Positions 10,488 through 61,487 are shown, counted from the stretch's first letter. The stretch: DNA of 64,000 nucleotides from Treponema sp. (GCA_041855945.1 JBHAFG010000007.1:9670-73669); one strand, 5' to 3'. The notes: generated from the sequence alone by a model not told the origin. Numbers and translations: made by a program.

Positions 10488-11396
10488 ATGAACGTACACA
10501 TACTTGAAATGCCGCTTGACTTTGGGGCCAGCCGCCACGGTTCGGACATGGGACCTTCGGCCATAAGGCTTGCAGGAATCAAGCAGCGTCTTGAATCCCT
10601 GGGACACAGGATAATTGAACACACCGACATTTTTCAGCCAAAACCACAGGAATACGAGGACGTAGGAAATCCCCGCGCAAAATATTTAAAGCCAATAGTG
10701 AACGCCTGCACAAAACTTGCGGAACAGGTTGAACATATTTCTTCCGCAGGCGATTTTCCGCTTGTGCTTGGCGGAGACCATTCCATCGCCCTGGGTTCAA
10801 TCGCGGGAATGTCTGCCACTGCCAAAAAATCCGACAAAAAACTTGGAGTGCTTTACGTGGACGCGCACGGAGACTTCAACAGCACCGAAACGACCCCTAC
10901 AGGAAACATTCACGGAGAATGTCTTGCTTCTTCCGCAGGAATTGGAATCACGGAACTTACAGACCTGCATTTTGAAGGTCAAAAAATCGACCCTGCAAAC
11001 ATCTGTCTTGTCGGGTGCAGGGATCTTGATTCAGGCGAAAAAGAACTTATGAAAAACGCAGGGGTCACCGTGTTCACGATGAGCGACATTGAACGTCAGG
11101 GTTTTCCTGAAATAATAAAGAAGATCAAACTTTTCTTCCTTACGCGCGCGGACATTGTACACGTAAGTTTCGACATGGACGTTCTAGATCCTATGTTCGC
11201 GCCGGGAACTGGAATTCCGCTTCCAGGCGGTCTTACAAACCGCGAGGCCCTTCTTTTGATGGAAGAAATGTCCGCTACAGGAAAGGTAAAATCGGCTGAA
11301 ATCGTGGAGGTGAATCCAATACTGGACGTAAGAAACCAGACCGCGGTTCTTGCTGTAAGCCTTGCGGCAAGGCTTTTGGGTGAAACGCTTTACTAA
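10488..11396 (+). CDS. rocF: arginase (ureohydrolase family)
   Basis: Mn-ligand motifs GGDHSIALGSIAG, DAHGDFN and SFDMDVLDP. N-terminus GASRHGSDMGPSAIRLAGI parallels Bacillus-type arginases. Confidence 0.8.
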   Translation: MNVHILEMPLDFGASRHGSDMGPSAIRLAGIKQRLESLGHRIIEHTDIFQPKPQEYEDVGNPRAKYLKPIVNACTKLAEQVEHISSAGDFPLVLGGDHSIALGSIAGMSATAKKSDKKLGVLYVDAHGDFNSTETTPTGNIHGECLASSAGIGITELTDLHFEGQKIDPANICLVGCRDLDSGEKELMKNAGVTVFTMSDIERQGFPEIIKKIKLFFLTRADIVHVSFDMDVLDPMFAPGTGIPLPGGLTNREALLLMEEMSATGKVKSAEIVEVNPILDVRNQTAVLAVSLAARLLGETLY

Positions 11397-15298: not shown

Positions 15299-17665
15299 TT
15301 ACAGCCCGGTTCCTACAATTGAAACAAAGACGTTGTCAGAACGCCCTTTCTGGTCTGTAACGACAATCTCGTATTTTCCAGGCTCGGCGTTCCATTCCAT
15401 CGTTTCGCCCGGACGCGTCCTTCCCAGAAAATTTGAACCGTTGAACCAGATGAGTTCGGAGGCGTCCGCGTCGGCCGAGGCGCACAGGATGATTTTGTTT
15501 TTTGAGCGGTCCTTCAGGCGGAAAACATAGTCCGTTCCGGAAAGCGGCGAAATAATCTCCGGCGGATAGCCCAGCCGCTTGAAGTCCATTTTAAGGTCCT
15601 CTGGCGGAAAATCGGGCGGCACAAGGCGGGGAAGACCCGCCTGCCTGAAAAGTTCCTGCAGGTCGCTTGGCCAGAACTCGCGCACGACAGTCTTTACGTA
15701 CGGATTTTCTTCCTCGCCGTCCAGAGTCCTGTAACCCGTCCTTGTGTCGATGTTTATCTCCCTGTGAATCCTGCACTTGTCTATTGGCGAAACGCCTGGA
15801 ATGAACCACGAAAGTTCAACTTCCGAACAACATTCCGTAGGAAGTCCGCCGCTCACCGCGCATACAGGAATCTGGGTGCAAAGTTCGCTGTGCCGTTCAA
15901 CGGGAATACGCATCTCTTCCGGGATGTCGGACAGTATGGAATAGGCAAGGTTGAACAGAAGAGGCGCAGCCATTTTTCGTCCGATGAAAGAGTTGTTTCC
16001 CTCGCCGTCGGCGTTTCCAATCCATACGGCGCACACGTATCGGTCAAAAATCCCAACGCTCCAGCAGTCCTTGAATCCTATTGAAGTTCCGGTCTTATAC
16101 GCCACAGGAACGTTCTGGATTTCCCTTGGCTTTGTCTGGTACGGCGGCGTGTTTTCCTCAAGCATTTTTTTTACGATGAATGAACTTTCCCTTGAAAGAA
16201 GACGTTTTCCTCCGAATTTCTTTGGCGACGGAACAAAATTCAGTTCATATTCGATTCCGCCGTTTGCAAGAACTCCATACATCTTTGCAAGTTCAAGCAT
16301 TGTAACCTCGCAGGTTCCAAGAACAATCGAAAGCCCGTAATAATCACGCTCCCTCATTCCCACAACGCCTGAATCCTGCATGAAGTCGTAAAGGTCGTAT
16401 TTTTTTATCTGGCGGTTAAGCGTTATGGCGGGAATGTTCCTGCTGTCTGCAAGGGCGAACCACGCCTGCACGGGTCCCTTGAAAATGCTTCCGTAATTGT
16501 CCGGCGTGTATTCGTTAAAAGTCTGAGGGGTGTCCTTCAACATCGTCCTGTAGTGTATGAGTCCCTGGTCAAGCGCGAGCGCGTATATGAATGGCTTCAG
16601 GGTTGAACCGGGCGAACGCTTTGAGGTTGTAATGTTCACCTGGCCCTGTATTTTTTCATTGTAATAGTCCGCAGAGCCTATCGCCGATACAACTTCCATG
16701 CTCTTCCAGTCAAACACAAGAACAGCGGCATTACGCACGCCAAGGCTTGAATTCTGGTTCAGATAGGTGTTAAAGATATCCTCGCATTTTTTTTGAAGTG
16801 AAAGGTCAAGGCTTGTACGCAGAGTTTTACGCGTCCTGTGCGTGGGTCTTGTGTTCAGCATTTCTGTAAAATGCCTTGCCTCGTTTGGAAAAGAACATTC
16901 AACGGACATCTGCATATCCATGAAAACTTCTTTTTCCGCATCCTCGGGGTGCTTTTCAATCCACGAAGAAAAAAGCACCTTCCTTGCCTGTATAAGTTCG
17001 CTTGGCGTCATCAACGGACCTGGCGAACGCTTCACAGGATTCTGCGGAAGGACGGCAAGCATTATTATTTCAGAAAGGTTCAAGGTCCTTACGCTTTTTC
17101 CAAAATAATACCACGCGCCAGTCTCAAAGCCCTCCACGTTTCGTCCGCACGGCGCGATGTTAAGATAGGCCTCGAGAATCTGGTTCTTTGAAAAACACAT
17201 TTCAAGATACAGCGCGCAAAAAATCTGCCGCAGTTTTCCAGCCACGCTCCTTGTGTAAAGACCGTACTTGAGTTTTGCAACCTGCATTGTAATCGTGGAC
17301 GCGCCCATGCGCCTTGAATGTTTTACGTATGTCTGCCAGCCGGCCCGTGCCACCGCCACAAGATTTACGCCGTTGTGAGTGTAAAAATACCTGTCCTCCT
17401 GCAAGAGAAGCGCCTCTACAAATTCAGGCGGAAAATCCTCAAGCGGTCTGAAAATCCTGAACTTTTCGTCGCGCGTAAGGAACACCTGCAGAAGTTCTCC
17501 GTTCCTGTCGGAATAAGAGCGTGAAAATTCAATTCCAGAAAGAACATCCCCCCGGCTCCTCTGATACAGTACGTGAAGCCCAAGGGAGATGAATGAAACC
17601 AGCAGAACGGATGCAGAAATCAAAGCCGCGGTGCGTTTTTTTGAGCGTTTTTTTGTAAGACCCAT
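15299..17665 (-). CDS. pbpC: penicillin-binding protein 1C (bifunctional glycosyltransferase/transpeptidase-like)
   Basis: GT51 motifs EDRYFYTHNGVN and RRMGASTITMQ. Transpeptidase SPGSTLKP (SxxK) and KTGTS. Extra C-terminal PBP1C-type domain. Immediately downstream of the alpha-2-macroglobulin gene. Confidence 0.9.
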   Translation of the reverse strand: MGLTKKRSKKRTAALISASVLLVSFISLGLHVLYQRSRGDVLSGIEFSRSYSDRNGELLQVFLTRDEKFRIFRPLEDFPPEFVEALLLQEDRYFYTHNGVNLVAVARAGWQTYVKHSRRMGASTITMQVAKLKYGLYTRSVAGKLRQIFCALYLEMCFSKNQILEAYLNIAPCGRNVEGFETGAWYYFGKSVRTLNLSEIIMLAVLPQNPVKRSPGPLMTPSELIQARKVLFSSWIEKHPEDAEKEVFMDMQMSVECSFPNEARHFTEMLNTRPTHRTRKTLRTSLDLSLQKKCEDIFNTYLNQNSSLGVRNAAVLVFDWKSMEVVSAIGSADYYNEKIQGQVNITTSKRSPGSTLKPFIYALALDQGLIHYRTMLKDTPQTFNEYTPDNYGSIFKGPVQAWFALADSRNIPAITLNRQIKKYDLYDFMQDSGVVGMRERDYYGLSIVLGTCEVTMLELAKMYGVLANGGIEYELNFVPSPKKFGGKRLLSRESSFIVKKMLEENTPPYQTKPREIQNVPVAYKTGTSIGFKDCWSVGIFDRYVCAVWIGNADGEGNNSFIGRKMAAPLLFNLAYSILSDIPEEMRIPVERHSELCTQIPVCAVSGGLPTECCSEVELSWFIPGVSPIDKCRIHREINIDTRTGYRTLDGEEENPYVKTVVREFWPSDLQELFRQAGLPRLVPPDFPPEDLKMDFKRLGYPPEIISPLSGTDYVFRLKDRSKNKIILCASADADASELIWFNGSNFLGRTRPGETMEWNAEPGKYEIVVTDQKGRSDNVFVSIVGTGL

Positions 17666-17667
17666 TT

Positions 17668-20600
17668 TTATTTTGAAGGACCGTCCATCGGAAGAATCTC
17701 AATCGGCTCGTAAGGTGTAATGGCTCGTATTTCCTTGTTGTACATGCTTTCCGCGAACATTGGCGGAACTGTAAACCTTCCGGAACTTACAGCCTTTGCC
17801 CTGTAGGTGAACGTATTGACCTTGTCCGTTACAGTTCCGTACACCACAACCCTGTCCTCCCGTATGTCAACATAATCGGGCGACCACGGAAGCGACGTCT
17901 GGCCGCGTATTGAACGTATGTCGGTTTCAAGACCCGCAGGCGTCATGTCTATAAGCGCGATGTTTCTCATGACGCCGCCAAGGCTTCTGAACGAAACCCT
18001 TATCTGCACAGTGTCGCCAATCTTCAACGACTTGAGCGGACTTCCGTCTTCTGAAAGTATCTGACGGCTGACCTCAAGTCCATCTGAAATCTGCTTTTTT
18101 GGAATGTCGCGTTCAAATCCCGCCTGGACGGCGCCGTAATACAGCGGCATGGACCTGTCGGAAACATAACGTATTTTTTTTGCGGACGGTGAAAATTCTC
18201 CTGCAAGGACGGAATCTCCATTCAACTGAATCTCCGTCTGGTTCTTTTCCGCGATTTCATAGATTTTGTAAACCTCGCTCTTGTCGGTGTATGCATAACT
18301 TTCAAACGCGCGTATGGCCGCCGAGGTGGAATATGTACTGTAATACCTGTATTCAAGGTGCGAGCAGAGTTCTTCAACTTCACGAGCCTTTATGTCGCCA
18401 ATCCTTGACGGAAAGTATGAGGCTACGATGTCTATGTATGTGGCGATGTAATGAAGTCCGTTGTGGTAGATCCACGACGAGTCAAACGTTTTTCTGTTCT
18501 TTACCTTCTGAAGAATTTCGTTTGCCTTCCTGTCCTGCTTGAGCATTGCGTATGAGGCGGCAAGGTAAAGACCCTCGTAGTCGCTTGCCGTGAAATTCTT
18601 TCGTGTAAGTTCTCCTTCAAGCGATTCAAGATACGATGTTGTAACAACGTCGCTTTTTGTAAGAACGTATATAGCAAACGCCCTTATGTATATTCCGTAT
18701 GAGGAATCGTCGCGTCTTGAGGCGATTGAACGAACCGCATCCAGCGTCTTTGCATACATTGAAGACGGAACGTAAAAGCCCCTGTTCTTTGCGTCAGTCA
18801 AAAATTCCGCGCAGTACAACGTTATGAAGTCGTCGTTTTCGCTCTTTCCCGTCCAGTATCCTATGTTTCCGTCTGATTTCTGGCGCGACTGTAAAATAGA
18901 AATCGTGTCCGAAACCATTTTTTCCGCGTCGGACTGTGTTTTTCCCGCAGCCTTTACAAAATCCTTGTAAAGATATGGATACGCCTTTGACGTTACCTGT
19001 TCAGAGCAGCCGTATGGATATTCCTCCAGGAATGTTTTAAGCCCGGACCTGAACGTTGTTGGAACGTTTGAAACGGAAACATTGCGTTTTGCCATTTCGT
19101 CATACAGCCTGTGGTCCACGTCTATCTCAGCCTGAGGTTTTTTGGAAAGACCCGCGTGAATCCATACCTGATAAGGCATGGATGGACGAACGCTCATCGT
19201 TGAACTTATTACAGACGATTCAGTTTCGTCCGACGCCGTAAATTTTATCTCGGCCGCGCCAAGAACGTCCTTTGCCCTGACCCTGAACTTTGCAGCAGCG
19301 TCCCTTCCCTCGGCGATTTTGAGTTTTACAGACTTTTCTCCAATTATTTCAAGATGCCTTGAGCCTTCCGCCCTGAGCAAGACGCTGTTCTCCCCCGTTC
19401 CCTTGTGGTTGTTGGTTACTGAAACGGAAACGTCGAACTCGTCGCCCGGAGCGGCCGCAAGCGGAACGTTTGGCATTATTATAAGATCGTTTGCGGCAAG
19501 CGTTGATTTCTGTTCAACTCCTATCCTGTCCTTTGACACTGCGACCGCCATTACACGTATCGTTCCGTTAAAGTAGTCTGGCACCCTGTATGTTACGCTG
19601 CGCTTTTCCGGACCTGTCTCCACTACACCCGACCAGAACGCAACGGAATCGTTCTGCCTGCGTTTGAACGGATTCAGGTTCTTTGCAAGCCTTTCCATCG
19701 CCGCGCCGCCGCCTGTAGCGGAAAGCGTCCTTAAAATATTGAATTCCGGAAGCACAAGGTCAAGAATCTGCGAGGTTCTGACCTCAAGCGCGCGTTTCTT
19801 GAAGAAGAACGCAAGCGGATCGGGAGTCCTGTATTTTGCAACCTGAAGGATTCCCTCGTCTATCGCAAATATCACGATTTTTCCAGAATCGGAAGAAGAA
19901 TAATTGATTTTCAAATCCGTTCCAGATTTTATCTCGGACGGAAATTCAAGATTTATGCTGTTCGTGCGTTTTTCCCTTCCAACAGAAAACGGAACCGCTC
20001 CGTAACAGAACGGACTCATGAAAATTTCTTCGGAAGAGGCGGATCTTGCATACATTACGTTTATGTATCCGTTTCCCTCGATGTCTTCTGGAATCTGTAT
20101 TGTCTGCACAGTTGAAAGTTCGGAAGTCTTGAACCATTTGTATGTGTACAGCCTGTCGCGTTCAACCGTTATAAGTCCGTAGCCCTCGTAAGGCGCCTTT
20201 ATGAAAACTTTTGCGACGGAGCCGGGGTTCAAGTCGGCGGATTCAAGTTTTATGTCAAGTTCCGCGGTGCGTGTAAGGCTTCGCGAAACGTTCCTGTCGC
20301 CCACAATCGTATAACTTATCGAGTTGAACACAAGTCCTTCCGAATCGGAAAGCGTAATCCTGTATTCTCCGGGATTCTGGGAAGGCACGAAAAATTCCGT
20401 TCCGTTCCGTGAAATCTCAATCTTCCTTGACTCCACGGGATATGTCTTTTTGACGGACTGATATTTGTAAAGTCCGTTGTGCTGCTTTACCAGAGTTGAA
20501 ACATAACGCACTTCTTCTATTGAAAGCGTAACGTCGGAAAGTGAAATCTGTTCAAGATTCTGGTCTATCGCGATGAACGAAAGTTTGCGCTTTGAATTGG

Positions 20601-23340
20601 CGTTTATGTAGTCCAGTTTTCCGTCGGCCTTGTAGCCCACAAGATGTCTTAACGGAGAAACATACACGCTGGACTGCGACGACACGCTTCTTCCGCCCGC
20701 CTTTTCAAATCCTTCGGCAAAGAACGAAAGCCTGTACGTGGCCCTCTCGAATTTTGCAAGGTCAAGTTCAAATGAAACCTCGCCGTTGTCGTCCGCCACG
20801 GTGTTTCCAAGAAAAACCTCATGCGACGAACCTTCCTTGAACGGATCTGAAAATTTGTAGTCCGAATATCTGTACAGCATCGGAAAGCCCGGCGTAAGAA
20901 GAAGATTCGCCTTTACGGCGTGTCCCGCGGCCGGAGTTCCAAAAAGATTTTTAAGATGCACAGTTCCCTTGAGTTCTCCGGGATTTATCCAGCCCTTTCC
21001 CGGAAGCGGATCAAAGCCCGTTGTTATGGAAAGACTGTCCGGCAGATATTCCTCGATTTTTACGTTTTCAGATGCAAGGAAATTTCGTTCCGTCCTGTCC
21101 TTGTATTCCTTTATAAAATATAGATTTGCGCTATAATTTCCTGTTGGCGAATAGTCCTGCGTTTTAAAACTGATTTCCTCAAAGCCTGACGAGGAAAGCT
21201 GAAGTCTCCTTGTATAAATCACAGAGCCGTTTGAGTCCACAACCTCCGCCTCAAGAGGAGTTCCCCTAAGGTCTATGTTCCAGTCGTTTGCCTTTGCAAT
21301 CATTGCAAGGTGGACTTCCTCGCCGGGACGGTACATTCCACGGTCGCTGAACATATAGGCGGAAATCTTTGCAGGGTCGGAATTTCCGTATTCTCCGCCA
21401 ACGTCAAAATTTGAATAGTCAAGGACGCGTCCGTTTTCGGAATAAGGCATGAACGAAAGGTCGTTTGAAGTTTCAACCACAAACGCTGTAGGTGTATGTT
21501 CGCCCGTATAGCCTGAAATCGCAGGAAACCAGGCCCGGCCTCCGCCGTCCGTTCTTGCAGTAAGGATTGCGTTTCCGTTCAGCCCGATTATGCGTACGGA
21601 CGCGTCGGCAATTGGGCTTCCGCCTGAAATCGACTGCACAAAAACGTTCCGAGTTCCATCGCTGTTCTTCTTTACGATGAATCCAATGTCCGTTACAAGA
21701 ATCAGCCTTCTGTCGGAAAGAGATTGCTGTCTGCCGTAATAATAATTTTCCTGCCGTCCAAGCCTTGATTCTGTGTCCGTCACCTGGAATATGAAAAGTC
21801 CGTTTGCAAGGTTCTTCCCAGGATTTGAAGACATCTTTTCGCCAAGGTCGTACGAAAAATACGAAACGTATCTGTCGCTTGCGCCCGCAATCTTGAAAGA
21901 GCTTACCTCGGATTCCGCTATGTTGTTCTCGCTGAAGTTGTATGTGTTGAAGTTGAAGTTCCTCATGTTTCCGTTTGACATGGAAACAAGGTGGTTCACG
22001 TCCTTCGGCATGATTCTTGAAAGACGGAAATACGCCGTATCGACTCCGCGCGAATAAATCGCAAGCCTCCTGCTTCCTGAAAGCGAAAGAATCGTTCCCT
22101 CCGACATTATCGAAAGTTCCCTTGGATATTTTGGAACTGGAACGCACCTGGAATATACGTTCTGAGAATTGTCAAAATGCAGTCTGTATCCGCCAAAAAA
22201 ATTCAGGTCGCCGTCAATCTTTACGTAAAGGTAGCGTCCCGCCGTAGCGTTGAACCTGAAACTGTTTATTGAAGATGCGGGTTCAGGCGTTGGAACAGGG
22301 TCAAGCGAAATCTTTTTTGACATTCCAAGAATCTCGTCCGTGCAGAACTCTGCGCTCCAGGCGTAATTTTCAACCGCATTCCAGCCTTCCATCTCCGGCC
22401 TGTCCTTTGGAAGTTCGTATACGGAAATCTTTTCGTGAATTTCCTCCACTGAAACAGAACCCTTCGTTTCAAGCACGAGCATCTGGTCGTAATTGTTTGA
22501 ACTGTTTTTTACAAGCGACGCCGAAATTCCTTCTATGCGGACAAAATCGCTCATTCCAGGAATCGAAACGCCCTCGCTCGACTCATAGCCCGACTTTCCG
22601 CCAACCTTCGCCTCTATTCCCTTTTTCATGGAAACGACCACGCTTGAAGTGTACGGCGGAATCGGAAGGCTGTCCGAAACGATATACGCCTCTGAAAAAT
22701 CCTTGCTCATCGAAACTTCAAACGGAACTGACTCCGAACGGATTTTTCTTCCCCTTGAATCAAGATATACAAAATCCATTGAAACGCATTTTCTTACGGA
22801 TTCCATTTCCATTGGATGCGAGGAACGGATTGCGGCGGTAACACGTTTTTCCTGCGGATTCTGGGGATTTATGTAGAATTCAGGACTGCGAAGAGATGTT
22901 GAGAACGCCTCGGTCTTGAAGGTGAACGAATTCTTTACGCTGACGTTCTTTGAAAAAATCGACTCCGGCATTGAAACCTTGTATTTTCCGTCCAAGGCCC
23001 ACGCGGATTTTGGAGTGAACGTAAGCACGGAGTCGCTCGACCACTGCCATTTTCCGGCGATTTCAGGCAAAATTAAAATCGGGGCGCTTGGCTCCCTGTC
23101 CACCTCGTCAAGCCCTGCCACAGAACCGTCGAACATTACAGAAAGAACTTCAGGCGTTCCGTCCGGATTTGGCCTTCCCGAAGGCTCATGCACGCTGTAT
23201 GAAACCGGAACCTTTGACTTTGAGCCGGACTTTACGCTGTGCCTTGTATACCTTGACTCCTCCTTGGTGGACGAACAGGAAAATACAAGTGCGGAAAAAA
23301 TCAATGCAAAAAAAATTACAATGCGGCGGCAAGTTTTCAT
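17668..23340 (-). CDS. yfhM: bacterial alpha-2-macroglobulin family lipoprotein (YfhM-type, thioester-containing)
   Basis: About 1890 aa. Lipobox LVFSCSS after MKTCRRIVIFFALIF (GGAGGAG RBS; ORF-track start at 23412 is probably too long). Thioester motif YPYGCSEQ encoded at 18997-19008. Paired with pbpC. Confidence 0.9.
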   Translation of the reverse strand: MKTCRRIVIFFALIFSALVFSCSSTKEESRYTRHSVKSGSKSKVPVSYSVHEPSGRPNPDGTPEVLSVMFDGSVAGLDEVDREPSAPILILPEIAGKWQWSSDSVLTFTPKSAWALDGKYKVSMPESIFSKNVSVKNSFTFKTEAFSTSLRSPEFYINPQNPQEKRVTAAIRSSHPMEMESVRKCVSMDFVYLDSRGRKIRSESVPFEVSMSKDFSEAYIVSDSLPIPPYTSSVVVSMKKGIEAKVGGKSGYESSEGVSIPGMSDFVRIEGISASLVKNSSNNYDQMLVLETKGSVSVEEIHEKISVYELPKDRPEMEGWNAVENYAWSAEFCTDEILGMSKKISLDPVPTPEPASSINSFRFNATAGRYLYVKIDGDLNFFGGYRLHFDNSQNVYSRCVPVPKYPRELSIMSEGTILSLSGSRRLAIYSRGVDTAYFRLSRIMPKDVNHLVSMSNGNMRNFNFNTYNFSENNIAESEVSSFKIAGASDRYVSYFSYDLGEKMSSNPGKNLANGLFIFQVTDTESRLGRQENYYYGRQQSLSDRRLILVTDIGFIVKKNSDGTRNVFVQSISGGSPIADASVRIIGLNGNAILTARTDGGGRAWFPAISGYTGEHTPTAFVVETSNDLSFMPYSENGRVLDYSNFDVGGEYGNSDPAKISAYMFSDRGMYRPGEEVHLAMIAKANDWNIDLRGTPLEAEVVDSNGSVIYTRRLQLSSSGFEEISFKTQDYSPTGNYSANLYFIKEYKDRTERNFLASENVKIEEYLPDSLSITTGFDPLPGKGWINPGELKGTVHLKNLFGTPAAGHAVKANLLLTPGFPMLYRYSDYKFSDPFKEGSSHEVFLGNTVADDNGEVSFELDLAKFERATYRLSFFAEGFEKAGGRSVSSQSSVYVSPLRHLVGYKADGKLDYINANSKRKLSFIAIDQNLEQISLSDVTLSIEEVRYVSTLVKQHNGLYKYQSVKKTYPVESRKIEISRNGTEFFVPSQNPGEYRITLSDSEGLVFNSISYTIVGDRNVSRSLTRTAELDIKLESADLNPGSVAKVFIKAPYEGYGLITVERDRLYTYKWFKTSELSTVQTIQIPEDIEGNGYINVMYARSASSEEIFMSPFCYGAVPFSVGREKRTNSINLEFPSEIKSGTDLKINYSSSDSGKIVIFAIDEGILQVAKYRTPDPLAFFFKKRALEVRTSQILDLVLPEFNILRTLSATGGGAAMERLAKNLNPFKRRQNDSVAFWSGVVETGPEKRSVTYRVPDYFNGTIRVMAVAVSKDRIGVEQKSTLAANDLIIMPNVPLAAAPGDEFDVSVSVTNNHKGTGENSVLLRAEGSRHLEIIGEKSVKLKIAEGRDAAAKFRVRAKDVLGAAEIKFTASDETESSVISSTMSVRPSMPYQVWIHAGLSKKPQAEIDVDHRLYDEMAKRNVSVSNVPTTFRSGLKTFLEEYPYGCSEQVTSKAYPYLYKDFVKAAGKTQSDAEKMVSDTISILQSRQKSDGNIGYWTGKSENDDFITLYCAEFLTDAKNRGFYVPSSMYAKTLDAVRSIASRRDDSSYGIYIRAFAIYVLTKSDVVTTSYLESLEGELTRKNFTASDYEGLYLAASYAMLKQDRKANEILQKVKNRKTFDSSWIYHNGLHYIATYIDIVASYFPSRIGDIKAREVEELCSHLEYRYYSTYSTSAAIRAFESYAYTDKSEVYKIYEIAEKNQTEIQLNGDSVLAGEFSPSAKKIRYVSDRSMPLYYGAVQAGFERDIPKKQISDGLEVSRQILSEDGSPLKSLKIGDTVQIRVSFRSLGGVMRNIALIDMTPAGLETDIRSIRGQTSLPWSPDYVDIREDRVVVYGTVTDKVNTFTYRAKAVSSGRFTVPPMFAESMYNKEIRAITPYEPIEILPMDGPSK

Positions 23341-23480
23341 AACTCCTCCAAAATAATAGCAGCGGTGACTGTATTGATGTCTGTTTGTGGACGAAGGGGT
23401 CTTCCCCTGCACATTTTTTTGTTATATCTTACAGAGTCATTGTACAGAGTATTACATAAAAAAGGAAGTTTAAAAAATTC

Positions 23481-27101: not shown

Positions 27102-27145
27102 GGCTGTGATTGTATATAAAAGAAAGTCGGCTTGTCCATATTTAC

Positions 27146-27338
27146 AGGTAACAGTTCAAATGAAAAAAGAGCCGGCTCAAGGTAACAGCATGAAGGAATT
27201 CATCCACAATGTTACGTGCATGGAAGCCCTTCAAGGTAACAGCATGACGGAAAATGCCTGAAATCTATTTTGTTGCATTACAAAGACTTGCAGGGGCCTA
27301 AAAAACACAGGTAACAGGAACGATGAAAAAGGTAACAC
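27146..27338 (+). repeat. five direct iterons AGGTAACAG-N(1 or 5)-ATGA (cores at 27146, 27180, 27234, 27309, 27330), candidate oriV
   Basis: Copies read aggtaacagttcaaatga, aggtaacagcatga (x2), aggtaacaggaacgatga and aggtaacactttaaatga. A sixth, inverted copy at 27443-27451 overlaps the repA stop. An AT-rich stretch at 27348-27400 follows. Confidence 0.75.
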
Positions 27339-27412
27339 TTTAAATGATTCTTCTATATACTCAATTAATACCAATTAATATATTTAAAACCTAGTAGCAG
27401 GAACGTGGATTC

Positions 27413-27421
27413 TGTGGATAA
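27413..27421 (-). promoter_or_regulatory. perfect DnaA box (TTATCCACA on the minus strand) between iterons/AT-rich tract and repA
   Basis: Plus strand reads tgtggataa. A degenerate second box (acgtggatt) lies immediately upstream at 27404-27412. Confidence 0.55.
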
Positions 27422-27450
27422 CCTGAATTTCTTTCACCCGGTCTGTTACC

Positions 27451-28458
27451 TTAAATATTGGATGTTATGAGCGCGTAGCGCGTGTCGTCCTTTACTACAG
27501 GCGTTCGGCTCTTGTAAAGCGTTATGCCTCCAGACTGTGAGTCAAGATCAACCTTCAGGTCGGGATAGTAATTTTTCTTTATGTCGCGTATCAGTCCTAT
27601 TATCTTGTTGTAATTGTTGCTTTCAAGTTTTGCCTGCTGCAGTTTTCCAAGTTCCTCGTTCAGAGGCATGAACTGTTCCACCAGTCTGTCGCGTGGAATC
27701 CAAAGTCCCTTTTCCGCGTCGATTGGAGCGTTGTTCCTGTACACAAGCCACGCGTATATGTCCTTTCCGACGGGACTTGTTATCTCCTTGTACACTGAAT
27801 AGTCTATCGGAACAGCGTGGTTCTGGCAGAAATGTGAAAATTCTGGAGAAAGTATTATCTTGAAGTATCCGTACTTGAGATCGGCAGAGCCGTCGTCGAA
27901 TTCCTTGAACTGAACGCCGTTCGTGAACCTGATGTTTCCTGTGGAATAGGTTGTTACAGTCACGTCCTTTTTGGGATATTCGCCCTCGCCGTATATCTCC
28001 TTGAAAAGATACGGACTTTTAAGCTCCTTTACCCTCATGTCAAATATGAACGCCGCGTTCGAAAAACATTCAAGCTGCTCCCTTATGTCGGAGCCGCGCT
28101 GTTTTGGAAGCTGCAGTTCACGCAGGAGGTCCGCCATGCTCGTGTATTCTATGTTCACGGAAACGCCCTTCTCCTTTGAAAGCACGGCGTGTGTAGTGAG
28201 CACGCTCAAAAGAAGCCGTCCGTACTTTCCGAACGGCACGTTCTTGGGAGATGAAAGCGTGAGCGTAACTCCGTTTGTTCCTCGGCGTACGAAAACTGTC
28301 TTGTGGACGTTCTTGAACGGAAGCGAGGCTGTCGTGAAAAAACTTGGAATGTAGGAGAGGCTGTGCTGCTTTTCCGCCTGCCGAGCCTCCTCCATGAACA
28401 TCCTTTCCACGAACGGATCTACGAGGTCAAGTTCCATTTCTTCGTCTTTTTCTTTCAT
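27451..28458 (-). CDS. repA: RepA-like plasmid replication initiator
   Basis: 335 aa. The segment FTTASLPFKNVHKTVFVRRGTNGVTLTL...VPFGKYGRLLLSVLTTHAV resembles, from memory, the 'plasmid encoded RepA' family. Context of iterons, DnaA box and parA supports the call. Confidence 0.6.
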   Translation of the reverse strand: MKEKDEEMELDLVDPFVERMFMEEARQAEKQHSLSYIPSFFTTASLPFKNVHKTVFVRRGTNGVTLTLSSPKNVPFGKYGRLLLSVLTTHAVLSKEKGVSVNIEYTSMADLLRELQLPKQRGSDIREQLECFSNAAFIFDMRVKELKSPYLFKEIYGEGEYPKKDVTVTTYSTGNIRFTNGVQFKEFDDGSADLKYGYFKIILSPEFSHFCQNHAVPIDYSVYKEITSPVGKDIYAWLVYRNNAPIDAEKGLWIPRDRLVEQFMPLNEELGKLQQAKLESNNYNKIIGLIRDIKKNYYPDLKVDLDSQSGGITLYKSRTPVVKDDTRYALITSNI

Positions 28459-28490
28459 CTCCAGCCTTTTCTTTTGGATTGTGGTTTTTA

Positions 28491-28549
28491 AGGTAACAGA
28501 ATGACGGATTTTTTTAAGAAAACCTGACGTTTCATCAGAACTGTTACCT
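28491..28549. promoter_or_regulatory. inverted pair of iterons (AGGTAACAGaATGA ... TCATcagaaCTGTTACCT) in the repA upstream region; candidate autoregulatory operator
   Basis: Cores at 28491-28499 (+) and 28541-28549 (-), located 33-91 bp upstream of the repA ATG. Confidence 0.5.
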
Positions 28550-28631
28550 CATTTTACGGCAAGTATAACCGCAAGCCGATATAAATTCTAGGTGAAAGTC
28601 CAAATTTTTTATGCAGGCCGACCTTGAACGT

Positions 28632-28961
28632 TCAGGCCAGCACCTGCTCAAGTATCTGGTTTATGCAGCTGTTCACGGAAATTCCGTTCTTCCTTGAAAG
28701 CGATTCCAGTTTTGAATACACGCTTTCCGTAAGGAGGATGCTTGTACGCCTTGACTTGGTTTCCTTTCCGATTATGGTGAATGGCTGTTCAGCCTTCGTC
28801 CGTTTTTCCCTTGACGGAGATTCCTTTTTTTCCGCGGCGGGCGTGTGTTTCACCTGTTCTGTTACCTCTTTTTCCGAAGTTTCAGTTTTTTTTTCAGAAT
28901 TCGAGATGTCCGAAGAAATCCACGCTGTCGCGACGTTGGTGTCGAAATTTTTTTTCGTCAT
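28632..28961 (-). CDS. small ribbon-helix-helix (CopG/Arc/ParG-like) DNA-binding protein, probable centromere-binding partner of ParA
   Basis: 109 aa. Charged, disordered N-terminus. C-terminus RRTSILLTESVYSKLESLSRKNGISVNSCINQILEQVL fits an RHH fold. 4-nt overlap with parA. Confidence 0.55.
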   Translation of the reverse strand: MTKKNFDTNVATAWISSDISNSEKKTETSEKEVTEQVKHTPAAEKKESPSREKRTKAEQPFTIIGKETKSRRTSILLTESVYSKLESLSRKNGISVNSCINQILEQVLA

Positions 28962-29728
28962 TTTCTGCCTCCCTTTCCGTCCGATGAAAGAAGTTCGTCT
29001 ACAAAATTGCTGTAGTCCTCCGCAACCTTTGAGCCTGGCGCGTATTCAAATATTGATTTCTGACTTATCTGCGCCTCCTTTATGGCTGTTGCCTCGCGGA
29101 TTGTGGCCTCAAACAGCTTTGCGTCAAGTCCTTCTGCAATCTTTGCCGCAAGGTCTGCCACCGTCCGGCTCAACACCGTCCTGTCGTTGTATCTTGTAAG
29201 CAGGATTCCTTCCACCTTTATTCCGTGGTTTGTGTACTGTCGTATCGGCTTCAATGTTTCTGCAAGCCTCTGTATTCCCTGTATTGAATATATGTCCGCC
29301 TGAGCGGGAACAAGAACGGAACTGCAGGCGGTCAAGGCGTTTATCGTAAGGATTCCAAGGGCGGGCGGCGTGTCTATGAGGATGTAGTCGTAGCGGTCTT
29401 TTACGCCCTCAAGTTCTTCCCTTAGCCTGTATTCCTTTCCCGTTTCGGTGAGGATTCCTTCAGCCGCGGCAAGTTGGGCGGTGCCAGGAATCAGGTCGCC
29501 GTCCGCAAGGCTCTGTATTGAGTCTTCCGCCTTTGAATCTTTTGTAAGGACGTTCAGTATGTTTTTTTTTGAACTGTCCGCGTTCATCGTGAACGTAAGG
29601 TTGCACTGAGGGTCAAGGTCAACCGCAAGCACCTTGAAGCCCCGCGACTTCAGACTTGAAAGGACGGCGTGTACCGTGGTGGTTTTTCCAGCGCCGCCCT
29701 TCTGGTTTGTTACAGTAAATATTTTCAT
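28958..29728 (-). CDS. parA: ParA/Soj-family partition ATPase
   Basis: Deviant Walker A NQKGGAGKTTT, Walker B YDYILIDTPPALG, 256 aa. Confidence 0.9.
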   Translation of the reverse strand: MKIFTVTNQKGGAGKTTTVHAVLSSLKSRGFKVLAVDLDPQCNLTFTMNADSSKKNILNVLTKDSKAEDSIQSLADGDLIPGTAQLAAAEGILTETGKEYRLREELEGVKDRYDYILIDTPPALGILTINALTACSSVLVPAQADIYSIQGIQRLAETLKPIRQYTNHGIKVEGILLTRYNDRTVLSRTVADLAAKIAEGLDAKLFEATIREATAIKEAQISQKSIFEYAPGSKVAEDYSNFVDELLSSDGKGGRK

Positions 29729-30530
29729 TCTTCTTTCCTGAAAACTTGATGGATTATGTTTGATAGTATAAAAGATATTACAAAAAGTAACAAGTAGATA
29801 TTATTTTTATAGGATAACGGCATAGGTTTTGTATAGAAAAACATAATACAAAATATAATACAGGATTTGATTGTTCCATGCGCGGCCGCAAAAACGTCAG
29901 GAACGCGTAAAAACGCCCTTTTTTGGCACGGTTCGATGATTATCCCGACTTTTACGTCTGAACGCGTAAAAAGGGCGTTTTATAGCCTCTGGGGGCGTGT
30001 TTTATCGCGGACTTTGTGGGGACTTTTTTGTTTTTGTAGAGCTTCCTGTTTTTCTCGTTTTTTTAAGCGTTTTTCACATACGCTTTAGAGCGTTGTGGAC
30101 GTCCGCGCCGCTTTTATTCAAGAATGACACAAAGCGCGTTTTTTTGTTCCGGTGAAAAGCGGCGTGCTGAACGGTTTTTAAAATGTACGCGATGCGTGTG
30201 CTATGTGAGCGCGATGTGCGGGAAAAGAAAATCGCCGCGCGCTGTTTTTGCGCCCTGTGTTTGTGCGAGGTTTTATATTGTTTTTGTATTGCCTTAATCT
30301 TATGTTTGTATGAAATACCTCTTGTAAATATATTAACAGTATCATACATTTATAATATCTTTATGTTACAAACCCGACCTGTGTTTTACACGCTAATATA
30401 AACCGCATAAAATTGTAATCCATTGCTCTTATAAAAGTGTCATAAAAATATTACACAAGAATTACAAAACAGAATGTAATTGTCATACGTTTTATAATAT
30501 AAACATATTCTAAAAAATCAATGTGAACAA

Positions 30531-30725
30531 AGGTAACAGTTTGGCGGAAAAAATCGCTCCGCCTTCCATTTGCCTTTCGTGTAAAAATTCCCGATTCGGA
30601 CTTGAGTTGCAGGGGCGCAAGGTGTACAACATTCCGCCTTCCGTGTAAATGTTCCGCCGTCTTGAGTGCGACTCTTGAGTGCGTTCCATGATTTTTTAGG
30701 ACTTCCGTATTTTTTCAGGTAACAG
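30531..30725 (+). repeat. two further iteron copies (30531-30539, 30717-30725) bracketing an imperfect two-unit direct repeat (CCGCCTTCC..GTGTAAA..TTCC..CTTGAGTGC)
   Basis: The iterons read aggtaacagtttggcgg and aggtaacagtttgaatga. Repeat units start near 30559 and 30634. CTTGAGT(T)GC occurs three times. Confidence 0.6.
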
Positions 30726-30739
30726 TTTGAATGAAAGGT

Positions 30740-47482: not shown

Positions 47483-49714
47483 TTGAGAGAATCTGCTTCG
47501 ACTGAAAATTCGACCGACCCGCTAAGTCCGTTTGGTTCGGCCAATTTACATTCTTCTGCTTCTGCAACTGAAGCGCAGACTGTCCGCGTAAAATTTCCAA
47601 TCGGTGTAAAACTTGCCATAATCATTGGTTTTATCGTTCTTGTTTCCTTGGGTGCTGTAACTTTTTTAAACAGCCACTTTACAGGCGAAGACGTAAAAAT
47701 CACCGCGGAAAATTCAAATCTTTCCGTCAATTCACGGGCTGCAAGCACTGTTGAAGACAAATTTTCTACAATCCGCTCAAACGTTTTTCAACTTCTTGAT
47801 TTGATAAACGTAGTTTCAGGCGGACGCACTGCCGCTCTGGCCCGTCAGGCGGAAGCGTTCTTTTTTGAGCGCAATTCCGACATCGCTTCCATACACATTT
47901 TGTCAAGCGACAGCATTTCTTCTAAAAATTCAACCGACGTAAACATCATAAACAATCGCTTTTTCATACAGAACGAACTGGATACAGCTTCCGCAGATGC
48001 GTTTTTATCTTCGGCGGAAGACCGCATTGTCCGCTCGTGCAGGGGAGAAACAATAGCACTGAACGCTTCTCCTTTTTTTGAACTTCCCGTAATGGCTTTG
48101 CTTTTTCCCTATACGGAAAACGGCAGGGAGCAGACTTGTGTAATTGTTTTTTCCATAGAAACCGTTTCGGACATTCTCGGAAGCGATTCTGTAAATACAA
48201 CCTTCATCATAAACGACAGCGATGAGCTTTTGTGTCATCCCGAAACTGAAAAAATTCTTCGCGGCGAAAGCCTTTCAAACAATGTGCTTGTTTCCTTGAT
48301 GAGAAAAAACAATCAAAACTCAAGCGACAGCAGACAAATTCCTTATGTAGAACAAAACGAAAACGGCAAAAAAGTTTCGTTTTACGGTGCGTATAAAAAA
48401 CTCGGCATGGGAGACATGGTGGTTCTGACCTCGGTGCCTTTGGATTCGATTCTTGAAGGAGTTCGCACCACACGACGCAACAACATCTACCTCATGGGGA
48501 TTGTATTTTTCCTTTCCATAATATTTATTTTGGTGTTTGCACGCTTTGCAATTTCACGGCATCTTCAAAAACTCACCCTGGCGGCAGAAGAAATTAAAAA
48601 AGGTAATTTTGACACGCCTCTGTTCGACGAACTTTCTACAAAACGGCAGGACGAAATTGGAGTTTTAAACCAAAGTACAAAGGACGAAAGCGAGTTTTTG
48701 AATTTGTTCTCCAAGTTTACAAACCGCGGAGTCGCCAAGTCCATTGCACGAAAGGAAATTGACTTTGAACCTCACTTAAAGGACGTTACGATTTTTTTCA
48801 GCGACATAAGGGGCTTTACTGCAATTTCAGACGGATTTAAAAACCGCTTCGGAAACGATTCTCCAAAAGAAATCATAGGATTTTTGAACGACTATATGAG
48901 CCGCATGGTAAACTGTATTACTTTGAGCGGCGGAAACGTAGATAAATTTGAAGGCGATGCCATTATGGCGGTGTGGGGAGTTTTACGCGACAACAATCTT
49001 GACTTTGAAAAATTGAGCGACACCGACCCCAATAAAAAAGCCCTCAAAATCAAGCATTACAGTCAGGTTATGGACGATGCCTTGAATGCAATACGCGGAA
49101 CCATAGCAATGCGTTACGCTTTGATGAAGTACAACAAAGACGCCCAGGAGTTTACAAAACTTCACGAGGGAGAGGAAAAACCCAAGTACAAGCCTCACAT
49201 TCAAATAGGCTGCGGTTTAAATACAGGACGGGCAACCTGCGGTATTATGGGTTCTGAAGACAAAATGGAATATACTGCGATAGGCGATGCCGTAAACTTT
49301 GCAAGCAGAACGGAAAGTTCAAACAAGCCTTGCGGCACTGACATTTTGATTACTGAAGACACATACAATCTTTTAAAATTCCGCTACATCAAAAATGAAT
49401 CAAACAATTTTGAAATATCGGAAAAATTTAGAGAAAACGAAATAATTGTAGAACGCATTCCTGTAGAATTTGAAGTCAAAGGAAAGGGCGCGCAGCATTT
49501 TTACGGCGTTGTAAATATGCCCAACTTTGACATAGAAAAATTCTTTAGAAAAGGCGATTGTGATTTTACGGTGGATGAAGATTGTGCAAGGGCTGTAGGT
49601 CCAAAAGGTCCTAAAACATTGAACGAAGTTAGAACAATGCTTGGTATTCCAATCCCTGAATTTGATAAGGTGAACCTGAATGAAGAAGAAAACAAAATTC
49701 AAGTTAAAAAATAA
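47483..49714 (+). CDS. membrane-bound class III adenylate/guanylate cyclase with periplasmic sensor domain and HAMP
   Basis: TTG start 7 nt after GAGGAG. TM - ~280-aa periplasmic domain - TM - HAMP (LTLAAEEIKKGNFDT). Cyclase motifs FFSDIRGFTAISD, KFEGDAIMAVWG and GLNTGRATCGIMGSEDKMEYTAIGDAVNFASR. Confidence 0.85.
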   Translation: MRESASTENSTDPLSPFGSANLHSSASATEAQTVRVKFPIGVKLAIIIGFIVLVSLGAVTFLNSHFTGEDVKITAENSNLSVNSRAASTVEDKFSTIRSNVFQLLDLINVVSGGRTAALARQAEAFFFERNSDIASIHILSSDSISSKNSTDVNIINNRFFIQNELDTASADAFLSSAEDRIVRSCRGETIALNASPFFELPVMALLFPYTENGREQTCVIVFSIETVSDILGSDSVNTTFIINDSDELLCHPETEKILRGESLSNNVLVSLMRKNNQNSSDSRQIPYVEQNENGKKVSFYGAYKKLGMGDMVVLTSVPLDSILEGVRTTRRNNIYLMGIVFFLSIIFILVFARFAISRHLQKLTLAAEEIKKGNFDTPLFDELSTKRQDEIGVLNQSTKDESEFLNLFSKFTNRGVAKSIARKEIDFEPHLKDVTIFFSDIRGFTAISDGFKNRFGNDSPKEIIGFLNDYMSRMVNCITLSGGNVDKFEGDAIMAVWGVLRDNNLDFEKLSDTDPNKKALKIKHYSQVMDDALNAIRGTIAMRYALMKYNKDAQEFTKLHEGEEKPKYKPHIQIGCGLNTGRATCGIMGSEDKMEYTAIGDAVNFASRTESSNKPCGTDILITEDTYNLLKFRYIKNESNNFEISEKFRENEIIVERIPVEFEVKGKGAQHFYGVVNMPNFDIEKFFRKGDCDFTVDEDCARAVGPKGPKTLNEVRTMLGIPIPEFDKVNLNEEENKIQVKK

Positions 49715-52649: not shown

Positions 52650-53970
52650 AAGATTTACGTTTGCCCTTTTTGTTGTTCTGCTTTTTTCGTTGAACACGGT
52701 CTGGGCTAAACCAAAAAAGAAAAACAATACAGGAATACAGATCCTTAATGAAGCCCGTCATTCTGAGCGGAGCGAAGAATCTCCTGAAGCGAGCGAAGAA
52801 GAAATCGCCCAGTCATCGTGGCAGTATCTTGAATGGGACGAGGCAAACCCGTCCTACGTGTTGAAATACGAAGTCGTAATTGAAGAATACAGTGAAAAAG
52901 AAAAGTCTTACATTGAAATAAACAGGCTTTACACGGAAGACAACACAACAAAGGTTCAAGTACAGCCTCTTTTACATCCCGGAAACTACCGATACAAGGT
53001 CATAACGTACAACCTTATAGGAATGGCGGACGTTGAGTCCGATTATTTTGAATTTCAGATTTTCCGCGCGTTCCAACCCGAAATAAGCGATTTGTCTTCG
53101 GCAATAAGCCATACGTCAACACTGTTTTTGGAAGAGTTCAACGACGGAATATTCAATGTTTCGGGCAGAAATCTTTTCATGCCAAAAGAAGACAGCTCAG
53201 ACATTTCGTTTACAACGTACGCTCTTGTAAATACAAAAAAATCCGACGGGCAATACATAAGCCCCAAAATATTGGAAGGCGACGAAAGAAACCGCAGGCT
53301 GAAAATACAGTTCGACATGAAGACACTGGACGCAGGCACATACAATTTTGTTGCAACGGACGCAAGCGGACTCAAAAGCGAAGCTTCCAAAAAAAACGAA
53401 ATAGTCGTCAAATTCAAAAAACGCGTAGACTTTGATTTGAGCGCGCAGTATTCAATACCTGTAGTGCTGTTTGACGACACAGTTAAAACCTACATGAAGT
53501 CGGACGTCTGGCCCTTTAGCATGAGCGCAAGAGCGTCGATGCTGCCTTTCAAGCACCGCTGGGGATATCTGGGAATGGGGCTTACGGCGTCGTACACAAG
53601 AATGTTCGCAAATTTCGACACATACAAAATCGACGGAAATTTAATTACAGCGCACGCAAATTTTGTATACCAATTTCCGCTAAGGTTCAGAATAAAACAG
53701 ACGGACAAAACGCGCCATGTCGCGACGCTGCAACTTCACGCAGGCGGCGGAATGGCGATGTTCAACAACTTCAAGTTCCACTTTGACCACGGAATGGCTT
53801 CCGATCCGCTGAACAGTTTGAACGTCAGTGTAATGGCGGTCGCGCTTTCGCAAATATACATAACAAACAGACTTTACACGGAAGTTTCCGCGGACTACAT
53901 AATGCCATTCGTGTCGGACATGATGTTTGGAATGTTTGTTCCATCGGTCGGCATAGGCTGGCAGTTTTAA
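52639..53970 (+). CDS. secreted protein with N-terminal Ig-like repeat(s) and C-terminal putative OM beta-barrel
   Basis: Start at MAIKRFTFALFVVLLFSLNTVWA after AAGGAG, with an 11-nt overlap onto the FecR-domain gene. GNYRYKVITYN and GTYNFVATD resemble the repeat of the upstream gene. The C-terminus ends ...GIGWQF. Confidence 0.55.
   Translation: MAIKRFTFALFVVLLFSLNTVWAKPKKKNNTGIQILNEARHSERSEESPEASEEEIAQSSWQYLEWDEANPSYVLKYEVVIEEYSEKEKSYIEINRLYTEDNTTKVQVQPLLHPGNYRYKVITYNLIGMADVESDYFEFQIFRAFQPEISDLSSAISHTSTLFLEEFNDGIFNVSGRNLFMPKEDSSDISFTTYALVNTKKSDGQYISPKILEGDERNRRLKIQFDMKTLDAGTYNFVATDASGLKSEASKKNEIVVKFKKRVDFDLSAQYSIPVVLFDDTVKTYMKSDVWPFSMSARASMLPFKHRWGYLGMGLTASYTRMFANFDTYKIDGNLITAHANFVYQFPLRFRIKQTDKTRHVATLQLHAGGGMAMFNNFKFHFDHGMASDPLNSLNVSVMAVALSQIYITNRLYTEVSADYIMPFVSDMMFGMFVPSVGIGWQF
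52757..52785 (+). repeat. copy of dispersed ~27-nt element (GTCATTCTGAGCGGAGCGAAGAATCTCCT) embedded in frame in a CDS
   Basis: Encodes RHSERSEESP just after the signal peptide of the 52639-53970 CDS. Related copies lie at 60593, 61419 and 62298. Confidence 0.6.
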
Positions 53971-53992
53971 GTGCTGTAAAAACCTGCCTCTT

Positions 53993-54049
53993 GCAAAATC
54001 CGCTGTAGCACGCAAAATCTGATGTGTAGCGCAAAATCTGACATTTATG
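53993..54049 (+). repeat. three tandem 19-nt repeats (GCAAAATCyG-N9), intergenic
   Basis: GCAAAATC recurs at 53993, 54012 and 54031. Three hairpins follow at 54077-54098, 54108-54135 and 54151-54166; the last is followed by a T-rich run just before the next RBS. Confidence 0.6.
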
Positions 54050-54195
54050 ATAAAATATAATAAAGTGTTTTGATTTGTAAGTTTGCACGCAAACTTACTT
54101 ATACACTGCTGTTTTTCACTTCGTTGCAAAACAGCGTAAAAATAAAACTCGCAAGTTGATACTTGCTCATTTTATTTTTATAGGAGGAGTTTTAT

Positions 54196-56301: not shown

Positions 56302-56428
56302 ATGAGACTGCAACGCTCAACACAAAAAAATAACTGGTTTTTATATTCTTTATGGGGTATAATACCCGCGGAGTTTTGGGGTTTTACACCTTGCTCCGCA
56401 CCTTATCTGGAATATTTAGGGGGATTTT

Positions 56429-57643: not shown

Positions 57644-57678
57644 TGACGGCGAAAAATTTTTATTATTGGAGTAAACTT

Positions 57679-60722: not shown

Positions 60723-60814
60723 TAGAAGGTCTCCATTAACCTGCGGTTTTAGTCCGTAAAGAGATGAACTTTAAGAAAGACCGTCCATGTAATATGGGCG
60801 GTCTTGTTTTTTTT
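60723..60814 (+). ncRNA. candidate type III antitoxin RNA / leader transcript (promoter-to-terminator unit, ~92 nt, no clear tandem repeats)
   Basis: It occupies the position where ToxI/antiQ-type repeat arrays lie in known type III TA loci, bounded by the promoter above and the terminator below. I saw only a weak ~50-nt self-similarity (agaaggtctccattaa vs agaaagaccgtccatgtaa). Confidence 0.3.
60777..60814 (+). terminator. rho-independent terminator immediately upstream of the toxN RBS
   Basis: AAGACCGTCCAT-gtaat-ATGGGCGGTCTT (12 bp with one G-U pair), then TGTTTTTTTT, then GGAGGG RBS and ATG at 60824. Confidence 0.75.
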
Positions 60815-60823
60815 GGAGGGCTT

Positions 60824-61418: not shown

Positions 61419-61487
61419 TTCATTCTGAGCGAAGCCCCTGTCATCCTGACCAACGCCTGTCATCCTGAGTGCAACGAAGGATCTCCT
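61419..61487 (+). repeat. three tandem partial copies of the dispersed element (TTCATTCTGAGCGAAGCCCCTG / TCATCCTGACCAACGCCTG / TCATCCTGAGTGCAACGAAGGATCTCCT)
   Basis: Intergenic, 26 nt downstream of the toxN stop. Confidence 0.65.

Follow-up and report, generated by a model that had tools for sequence, protein, structure and literature searches.

Herein we describe a compact replication and partition module within 64,000 nucleotides of DNA from Treponema sp. (GCA_041855945.1, JBHAFG010000007.1:9670-73669), a stretch that we refer to throughout as the window and number from its first letter. Between 27.1 and 30.7 kb the window holds a replication initiator gene (repA), followed beyond its stop codon by two DnaA boxes, an AT-rich tract and an array of short, directly repeated sequences (iterons), and preceded on the side of its start codon by an inverted iteron pair, a small gene coding for 109 amino acids (aa), a parA gene and about 1 kb of DNA without a convincing gene (Table 1). 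A preliminary description of the same DNA had read this region as an iteron-type theta replicon joined to a ParA/ribbon-helix-helix (RHH) partition system, and our analysis supports that reading through the RepA_C family assignment, predicted fold and homology of the initiator, through an origin core that is conserved among relatives, and through the GC skew. In our judgement the region is very probably the basic replicon and partition cassette, and the active origin, of a large Treponema plasmid of at least 73.7 kb, which is probably maintained at low copy number. It is very likely that the host is a gut or rumen Treponema and that the surrounding genes, seen earlier as housekeeping and catabolic, are plasmid cargo.

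Table 1 Features of the replication and partition module (window positions)
Feature	Position	Strand	Remarks
Origin iteron array, five direct 20-bp iterons	27146-27349	+	Starts 27146, 27180, 27234, 27309 and 27330 (last is the variant AGGTAACAC)
AT-rich tract, candidate DNA-unwinding element	27339-27392	.	83% A+T
Degenerate second DnaA box	27403-27411	-	Three mismatches, TCCAC kept
Perfect DnaA box	27413-27421	-	TGTGGATAA (TTATCCACA on the - strand); sole perfect box in the 64-kb window
Inverted iteron at the repA stop codon, abutting/overlapping	27432-27451	-	Motif match
repA, 335-aa replication initiator, RepA_C family	27451-28458	-	Open reading frame, Pfam, predicted fold
Inverted iteron pair, candidate autorepression operator	28491-28510, 28530-28549	+, -	33-91 nt upstream of the repA ATG
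109-aa gene, candidate ParG-like centromere-binding protein	28632-28961	-	Overlaps parA by 4 nt
Iteron within the 109-aa gene	28848-28867	-	
parA, 256-aa small Soj-like ATPase	28958-29728	-	Deviant Walker A KGGAGKT
About 1 kb without a convincing gene, candidate parA promoter/centromere and second RepA-binding (copy-control) locus	29729-30739	.	
Two iterons upstream of parA	30531-30550, 30717-30736	+	Distal end of the ~1-kb non-coding DNA

The 9-mer AGGTAACAG has ten exact matches on the two strands of the window, all of them inside 27146-30725 (starts 27146, 27180, 27234, 27309, 28491, 30531 and 30717 on the plus strand; 27443, 28541 and 28859 on the minus strand), whereas dinucleotide-preserving shuffles of the window contained a mean of 0.28 and a maximum of two matches, and none out of 100 reached ten. 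A search allowing one mismatch added the variant copy at 27330, inside the cluster, and its remaining matches are scattered over the window at approximately the rate expected by chance, so that both the confinement of the repeat to the module and the earlier remark that only partial look-alikes occur elsewhere were borne out. Seven copies had been described as continuing with one or five bases and then ATGA, which is numerically correct for seven exact copies, but a single register fits better: the 11 copies (ten exact and one variant) share the 20-bp bipartite pattern AGGTAACAG-N6-[T/G]GA[A/T][A/T] (equivalent to N6-KGAWW after the 9-mer), with GA at positions 17-18 in every one. The five direct copies of the origin array fall within 204 bp at spacings of 34, 54, 75 and 21 bp, and spacings of 21-22 bp and 54 bp also occur in relatives of this replicon (see below). 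The iteron said to lie over the repA stop codon does overlap it, although the 9-mer and the TAA have only one base in common; the stop codon lies inside a 14-bp perfect inverted repeat whose partner is the copy at 28487-28500, and most relatives have an inverted copy located between -4 and +30 relative to the repA stop. The inverted pair occupies the 173-nt spacer between repA and the 109-aa gene, where it may serve to repress repA, and copies recur in relatives at about -1000 to -1350 from the repA stop. A scan of 28459-28631 for sigma-70-type consensus sequences gave no convincing repA promoter.

RepA scores 34.0 bits against the Pfam family RepA_C (PF04796; gathering score 26, E = 4.6e-8), and translated searches (tblastn) of the plasmid database PLSDB aligned 94% of it, at 58% identity, with a "hypothetical protein" encoded on Treponema succinifaciens pTRESU01; the identity is 42% to the annotated RepA of Treponema bryantii pTB1 and 24-28%, in alignments spanning about 90% of the protein, to products annotated as "replication protein RepA" on other plasmids (from Acidovorax, Hydrogenophaga, Stenotrophomonas, Prosthecochloris and others). 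A large protein database yielded 662 homologues, the named ones all from Treponema and some already carrying the name "plasmid encoded RepA protein", and a sequence identical to RepA is deposited at NCBI as part of a contig of 73,729 bp. An AlphaFold2 model based on 87 homologues (predicted local distance difference test (pLDDT) 82.6, predicted template modelling score 0.78) was compared with the PDB using Foldseek, and its three top matches, each with a probability of at least 0.97, were RctB domains 2-3 (E = 1e-6), RepE54 (E = 3.4e-4) and the pi-iteron complex (E = 9.7e-3), after which the probabilities drop to low values; a PDB sequence search with the RepA profile returned nothing. The model is consistent with a dual (tandem) winged-helix fold for RepA, as in the iteron-binding initiators RctB, RepE and pi, and a recent survey counts RepA_C among the winged-helix initiators (bioRxiv 10.1101/2024.09.03.610885). 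The gene that had been called RepA-like thus bears similarity to replication initiators by family (above the PF04796 threshold), by predicted fold and by homology to Treponema plasmid rep genes.

A scan of one genome per GTDB species gave 140 loci encoding a relative of RepA, of which we retrieved 80, almost all from gut, rumen or faecal Treponema metagenome-assembled genomes (MAGs) and isolates, on contigs of up to ~220 kb. In most relatives a CTGTTAC[CA]-type word occurs three to nine times within 700 nt downstream of repA, and further iteron copies lie in the small gene or the repA promoter, ~1.0-1.35 kb upstream, with clusters often found 2.5-3.4 kb upstream, past parA. The first 150-170 nt after the repA stop can be aligned at the nucleotide level in at least 25 loci, and an alignment of 18 loci shows a fixed order: inverted iteron(s), an invariant TnTCCAC DnaA box, often a second TCCAC, CTATTAYTAG, a ~50-nt AT-rich block (ATTATTAG repeats, TAGAAGA), and finally an iteron pair at 22-nt spacing. 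Of the 80 loci, 66 have the word TWTCCACA, in repA orientation, no more than 150 nt from the repA stop; its background frequency, counting both strands, is 0.207 per kb. The AT-rich tract, the perfect DnaA box and its degenerate neighbour noted previously in the window are all real in the sequence, and a second TCCAC recurs at the matching position in relatives. Within the tract itself are short repeats of the ATTAAT type, and the distal end of the array's fifth iteron extends into it; no stable single-strand structure was predicted for 27339-27392. One of the retrieved loci (L062, SFNX01000021.1) comes from a MAG labelled Lachnospiraceae, encodes a RepA 60% identical to that of the window, and has origin-array iteron positions (from the stop to +555) that match the T. 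bryantii NK4A124 locus (L070) and a further locus (L061); it is probably a misbinned Treponema plasmid contig.

Among complete genomes, the relatives of RepA always reside on plasmids, the closest being the circular pTRESU01 (165.6 kb) and pTB1 (85 kb), and no relative was found on a contig larger than 221 kb. pTRESU01 (NC_015386) shares with the window the gene order parA, small gene, repA, as well as an iteron inside the small gene, and both pTRESU01 and pTB1 (AP025287) have iterons downstream of repA, with a copy at the stop followed by DnaA boxes. They differ from the window in the distal iteron halves (ATAACGA...TGTTACAT in pTRESU01 and GAAATAGAAACTGTAGTTAT in pTB1) and in other respects: pTRESU01 carries type IV secretion system (T4SS), contractile-injection and toxin cargo and a second ParAB pair, where the window has metabolic cargo, while pTB1, which was sequenced as a by-product of a study of rrn-plasmids (PMC10645730), has two RepA genes and no ParA match beside the first of them. 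The two pTB1 paralogues (L002; 7959-8924 and 14528-15454) are ~6 kb apart on the 85-kb plasmid, and 14 iterons spaced 43 bp apart come after the first. A megablast search of PLSDB with 26-46 kb of the window gave no match, and the replicon is therefore not a known sequenced plasmid.

The same Pfam family includes the initiators of proteobacterial plasmids (pXAC64-type RepA) and of Salmonella genomic island 1 (SGI1), whose Rep requires an oriV directly downstream of rep with four iterons, a DnaA box and AT-rich tracts, and in which deletion of either rep or oriV abolishes replication (PMC7433901). The window resembles SGI1 in this arrangement of rep followed by an origin with direct iterons, a DnaA box and AT-rich DNA, but its RepA is only 24-28% identical to the proteobacterial proteins, its iterons are AT-rich, bipartite 20-mers rather than GC-rich 17-mers, and its replicon would belong to a large plasmid with its own parA in a spirochaete host, not to a mobilisable island under AcaCD control. 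With the Rep_3 plasmids (F RepE, R6K pi, pPS10 RepA) and RctB of Vibrio chromosome 2, the window shares the dual winged-helix fold (as predicted by the model), direct iterons, a DnaA box and an AT-rich unwinding element at the origin, and an inverted iteron pair at the rep promoter, whereas its RepA has no detectable sequence similarity to those proteins and belongs to another Pfam family, and its origin lies downstream of rep instead of upstream.

The strand composition of the window changes at the module. The GC skew has a negative sign between ~3 and 27 kb and a positive one between ~29 and 44 kb and further to the right, with the largest step of the window, comparing adjoining 10-kb segments, at 27-32 kb; 83% of coding bases to the left of the origin are on the minus strand and 83% to the right on the plus strand, and hence co-oriented with outgoing forks. 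In relatives with at least 5 kb on both sides of the locus (n = 38), the skew is negative upstream and positive downstream of repA in 36. On pTRESU01 a negative-to-positive switch at ~150 kb adjoins the parA/small gene/repA/iteron module at 150.3-153 kb, and although a long block of genes in one direction dominates the skew of the whole plasmid, which shows no clean V, the profile agrees with an origin at ~150 kb. Such a switch is as expected for forks that leave the module both ways and not for a recent insertion inside a chromosome, which bears upon the idea, raised previously, that a plasmid replicon has been captured in the chromosome. In such a case the module would be part of a plasmid or island integrated into the main chromosome, inactive or active only at times, in the manner of SGI1. 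RepA_C replicons are indeed known from integrated islands such as SGI1, and the flanking genes do look chromosomal. We nevertheless regard capture as highly improbable, given that the switch falls exactly at the module here and in the relatives just mentioned, that every complete genome has its relative on a plasmid with none on a larger contig than stated above, and that the 64 kb yielded neither an integrase, recombinase or transposase nor a tRNA attachment site. The domain search behind this last point covered open reading frames of at least 150 aa in the window, which leaves ~9.7 kb of the contig outside, and it agrees with the earlier remark that neither integrase nor transposase is visible. 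Of the alternatives put forward before, it is thus the one in which the contig itself is a plasmid or chromid that stands. A chromosomal oriC was rejected as a candidate, there being no dnaA or dnaN nearby and the relatives being on plasmids, and a phage-plasmid was rejected on the grounds that the window contains no phage genes.

The partition genes form a translationally coupled pair. ParA matches Pfam AAA_31 (E = 6.5e-50) and also CbiA, has ParA/Soj proteins as its nearest PDB relatives, and lacks an N-terminal helix-turn-helix (DNA-binding) domain; its matches to NCBIfam models are of ParA type, every one of them below the model's cut-off, and it is only 22-33% identical to the ParA proteins of the related loci. 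For the 109-aa protein we found nine homologues only, whose alignment begins with an N-terminal motif MAKxFNTNVAxxWISxDI, continues with a Lys/Glu-rich linker and ends in a C-terminal block, TSLLLKESxYxKLxxLSKKNGISVNSCINQILEQVL; no NCBIfam model matched it, and a PDB search with its sequence profile returned nothing. The organization is that of type Ib partition systems (TP228 ParF/ParG, pB171 ParA/ParB), in which a small ParA is followed by a coupled small protein whose N-terminal part is flexible and whose C-terminal domain is RHH-like. The window differs from these in the tiny size of its small-protein family, in an RHH assignment that falls below significance, and in having no identified centromere repeat array upstream of parA.

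Several observations weigh against our interpretation of the module and determine how far each part of it can be taken. With regard to the initiator, the PF04796 match aligns residues 200-243 of RepA only, and no NCBIfam model matched the protein. With regard to the origin, the cumulative skew forms a broad, flat basin at 26.5-31.5 kb with its minimum at 29.2 kb, and not at the ~27.3 kb where the preliminary description had proposed to look for the switch; the switch does coincide with the module, but owing to the breadth of the basin the skew does not tell whether replication starts downstream of repA or in the 1-kb non-coding region. GC skew is furthermore correlated with gene orientation, and the two are therefore not independent lines of evidence. 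With regard to partition, the RHH_4 match of the 109-aa protein (E = 0.0043) is below the Pfam cut-off, its top Foldseek matches are all RHH proteins (CopG, Arc, AmrZ, FitA) but at E > 0.7 (probability 0.91 for CopG), and no centromere repeat array was identified near the par operon. The structural model of this protein has a pLDDT of 62 overall and is confident for the last two helices only. Because of the sub-threshold RHH_4 score, the partly confident model and the non-significant Foldseek values, a ParG-like role for the 109-aa protein is likely but not established; accordingly, of the partition system as first described, the reading-frame positions and the ParA ATPase hold, and the RHH assignment is weakly supported.

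The non-coding kilobase upstream of parA consists of two ~24% GC segments around a 46% GC core. Repeats found here comprise short AT-rich ones, the two iterons and a few two-copy repeats, and ATTACA-type words showed no clear enrichment in 29729-30739. This interval matched neither the related loci nor PLSDB at the nucleotide level, and a search of Rfam over 26.5-31 kb was empty for E values as high as 1; in relatives, clusters of iterons do recur on the upstream side of parA. The core (29871-30300) contains a direct repeat, GAACGCGTAAAAAnG..., whose copies include a perfect 14-nt inverted repeat (AAAACGCCCTTTTT, AAAAAGGGCGTTTT); for the core, neither an Rfam match nor conservation in relatives was seen.

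Previous work on iteron replicons (e.g., the reviews cited in PMC7433901 and PMC4980987) suggests how such a module may operate. RepA monomers would bind the five direct iterons near the repA stop and host DnaA the adjacent DnaA box(es); together they would melt the 83% AT tract that lies between them, the replicative helicase would be loaded, and forks would move away bidirectionally (theta replication). Bound to the inverted pair upstream of repA, RepA dimers would shut down repA transcription, and the additional iterons (at the stop codon, in the small gene and the two upstream of parA) may handcuff the origin iterons and in this way limit copy number. ParA and the small RHH-like protein would segregate the copies by means of a candidate centromere, probably upstream of parA.

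The genes around the module include those for a methyl-accepting chemotaxis protein, a histidine kinase with a response regulator, a MacB/FtsX-type ATP-binding cassette (ABC) exporter with a LolA-like protein, an arginase, a rubrerythrin, a major facilitator superfamily transporter, PbpC with an alpha-2-macroglobulin, a Nudix protein (next to the origin array, beyond the iterons in the direction of repA), a GH53 galactanase, a sugar ABC transporter, a GH35 enzyme, glnA, a GDP-mannose-type nucleotidyltransferase (GDP-mannose pyrophosphorylase), FemAB, a nucleotide cyclase, ToxN and an OmpA-domain protein, as well as several large proteins without a Pfam match. Such an inventory raises the question of whether the contig is a chromid, which would have the same RepA/iteron origin, would be stably inherited in its lineage and would carry genes that the cell cannot lose, for example its only glnA. 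Much of the cargo does look chromosomal (glnA, PbpC/alpha-2-macroglobulin, FemAB, GDP-mannose pyrophosphorylase, two-component, chemotaxis and sugar genes), as does the strong pattern of skew and gene orientation, and conjugation or phage genes were not found in the 64 kb; in a T. rectale isolate, moreover, the module is mid-way in a 215.7-kb contig rich in metabolic genes, similar in kind to those of the window. No universal essential gene is present among the genes found, however, and the window contains no tRNA, no rRNA and no other Rfam family at gathering scores over the whole 64 kb. RepA and the origin core are conserved in relatives while the nearby cargo is not: apart from the arginase, which recurs near the origin in several relatives and to that extent favors a chromid, none of the 80 relatives has, within 10 kb of its origin, an equivalent of any cargo gene of the window. 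This absence of synteny, combined with the lack of core RNA genes, makes a plasmid more likely than a chromid. The divergence of ParA and the small number of homologues of the 109-aa protein also suggest a modular, plasmid-like turnover, the ToxN gene fits a plasmid lifestyle, and pTRESU01 is a typical accessory plasmid with T4SS and contractile-injection genes, toxins and insertion sequence elements. Taken together, we consider a chromid, although the chief alternative, to be an unlikely explanation and prefer a large accessory plasmid. The arginase-family gene itself (10488-11396, plus strand) is the sole cargo gene common near the origin: it recurs within a few kb of the RepA origin in T. 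berlinense-type loci (82% identity) and in the closest relative (68%), these loci being L073-L076 and L004, and adjoins parA in another MAG.

The architecture described here is textbook and widespread in gut and rumen Treponema, and the replicon in the window is one that was previously uncharacterized; our literature search found no paper describing this Treponema RepA replicon family or Treponema chromids. With the contig taken as plasmid-type rather than chromosomal, its galactan, glutamine and cell-wall genes become mobile or dispensable cargo, and the same annotation lesson applies to many similar contigs in Treponema MAGs. General understanding of iteron plasmids is unchanged by these results. 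The comparison does define a minimal origin, consisting of repA and ~350 bp downstream, that is conserved in a clade whose Treponema RepA proteins number more than 600 and from which the construction of shuttle vectors for treponemes of the gut and rumen can start.

The iterons of the relatives are bipartite in the same manner, with a constant TGTTAC half and a replicon-specific distal half (TTCA..., TTAAA..., ATAACA..., AATCAAA... and TTTAnGAGA...), and distal halves mostly differ even between replicons binned into one MAG. Constant and variable halves, along with the divergent par cassettes, offer a natural series for studying how related replicons escape incompatibility. Several MAGs contain two or three contigs with different RepA/iteron combinations (L006, L071 and L078 in JAZLGS; L067, L079 and L080 in JAZQOB; and the pairs L008/L059, L017/L048 and L039/L050), which could represent co-resident compatible replicons or mixed strains in the bin. 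It is conceivable, though we would not count on it, that gut and rumen treponemes are commonly multipartite, with several compatible RepA/iteron replicons of 70-220 kb or larger per cell. Such replicons might be told apart by their distal iteron halves and divergent ParA cassettes, and might hold chromosome-like metabolic genes and replicate bidirectionally like small chromosomes. The multiple RepA contigs per MAG, their differing distal halves and the T. rectale contig hint in this direction, while the possibility of strains being mixed in MAG bins and the non-syntenic cargo hint against it. If true, it would represent an unrecognized chromid system in Spirochaetota beyond Leptospira and Borrelia.

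Three further regions of the cargo deserve mention. The ToxN-family toxin gene, of the type III toxin-antitoxin kind, is located at 60764-61393 on the plus strand (PF13958, E = 8.7e-42); no ToxI-like tandem repeats were detected upstream or downstream of it, the only nearby repeat being a 19-nt unit in 2.5 copies at 61420-61469. Five large open reading frames (989, 459, 701, 404 and 920 aa) lie in a row at 49680-60405 on the plus strand, where the GC content falls to ~38-43%, and show no Pfam match at the thresholds used. Lastly, at 15299-23412 on the minus strand, this probable plasmid carries a known pairing, with the alpha-2-macroglobulin gene (1914 aa) positioned directly upstream of the gene for the PbpC-type penicillin-binding protein.

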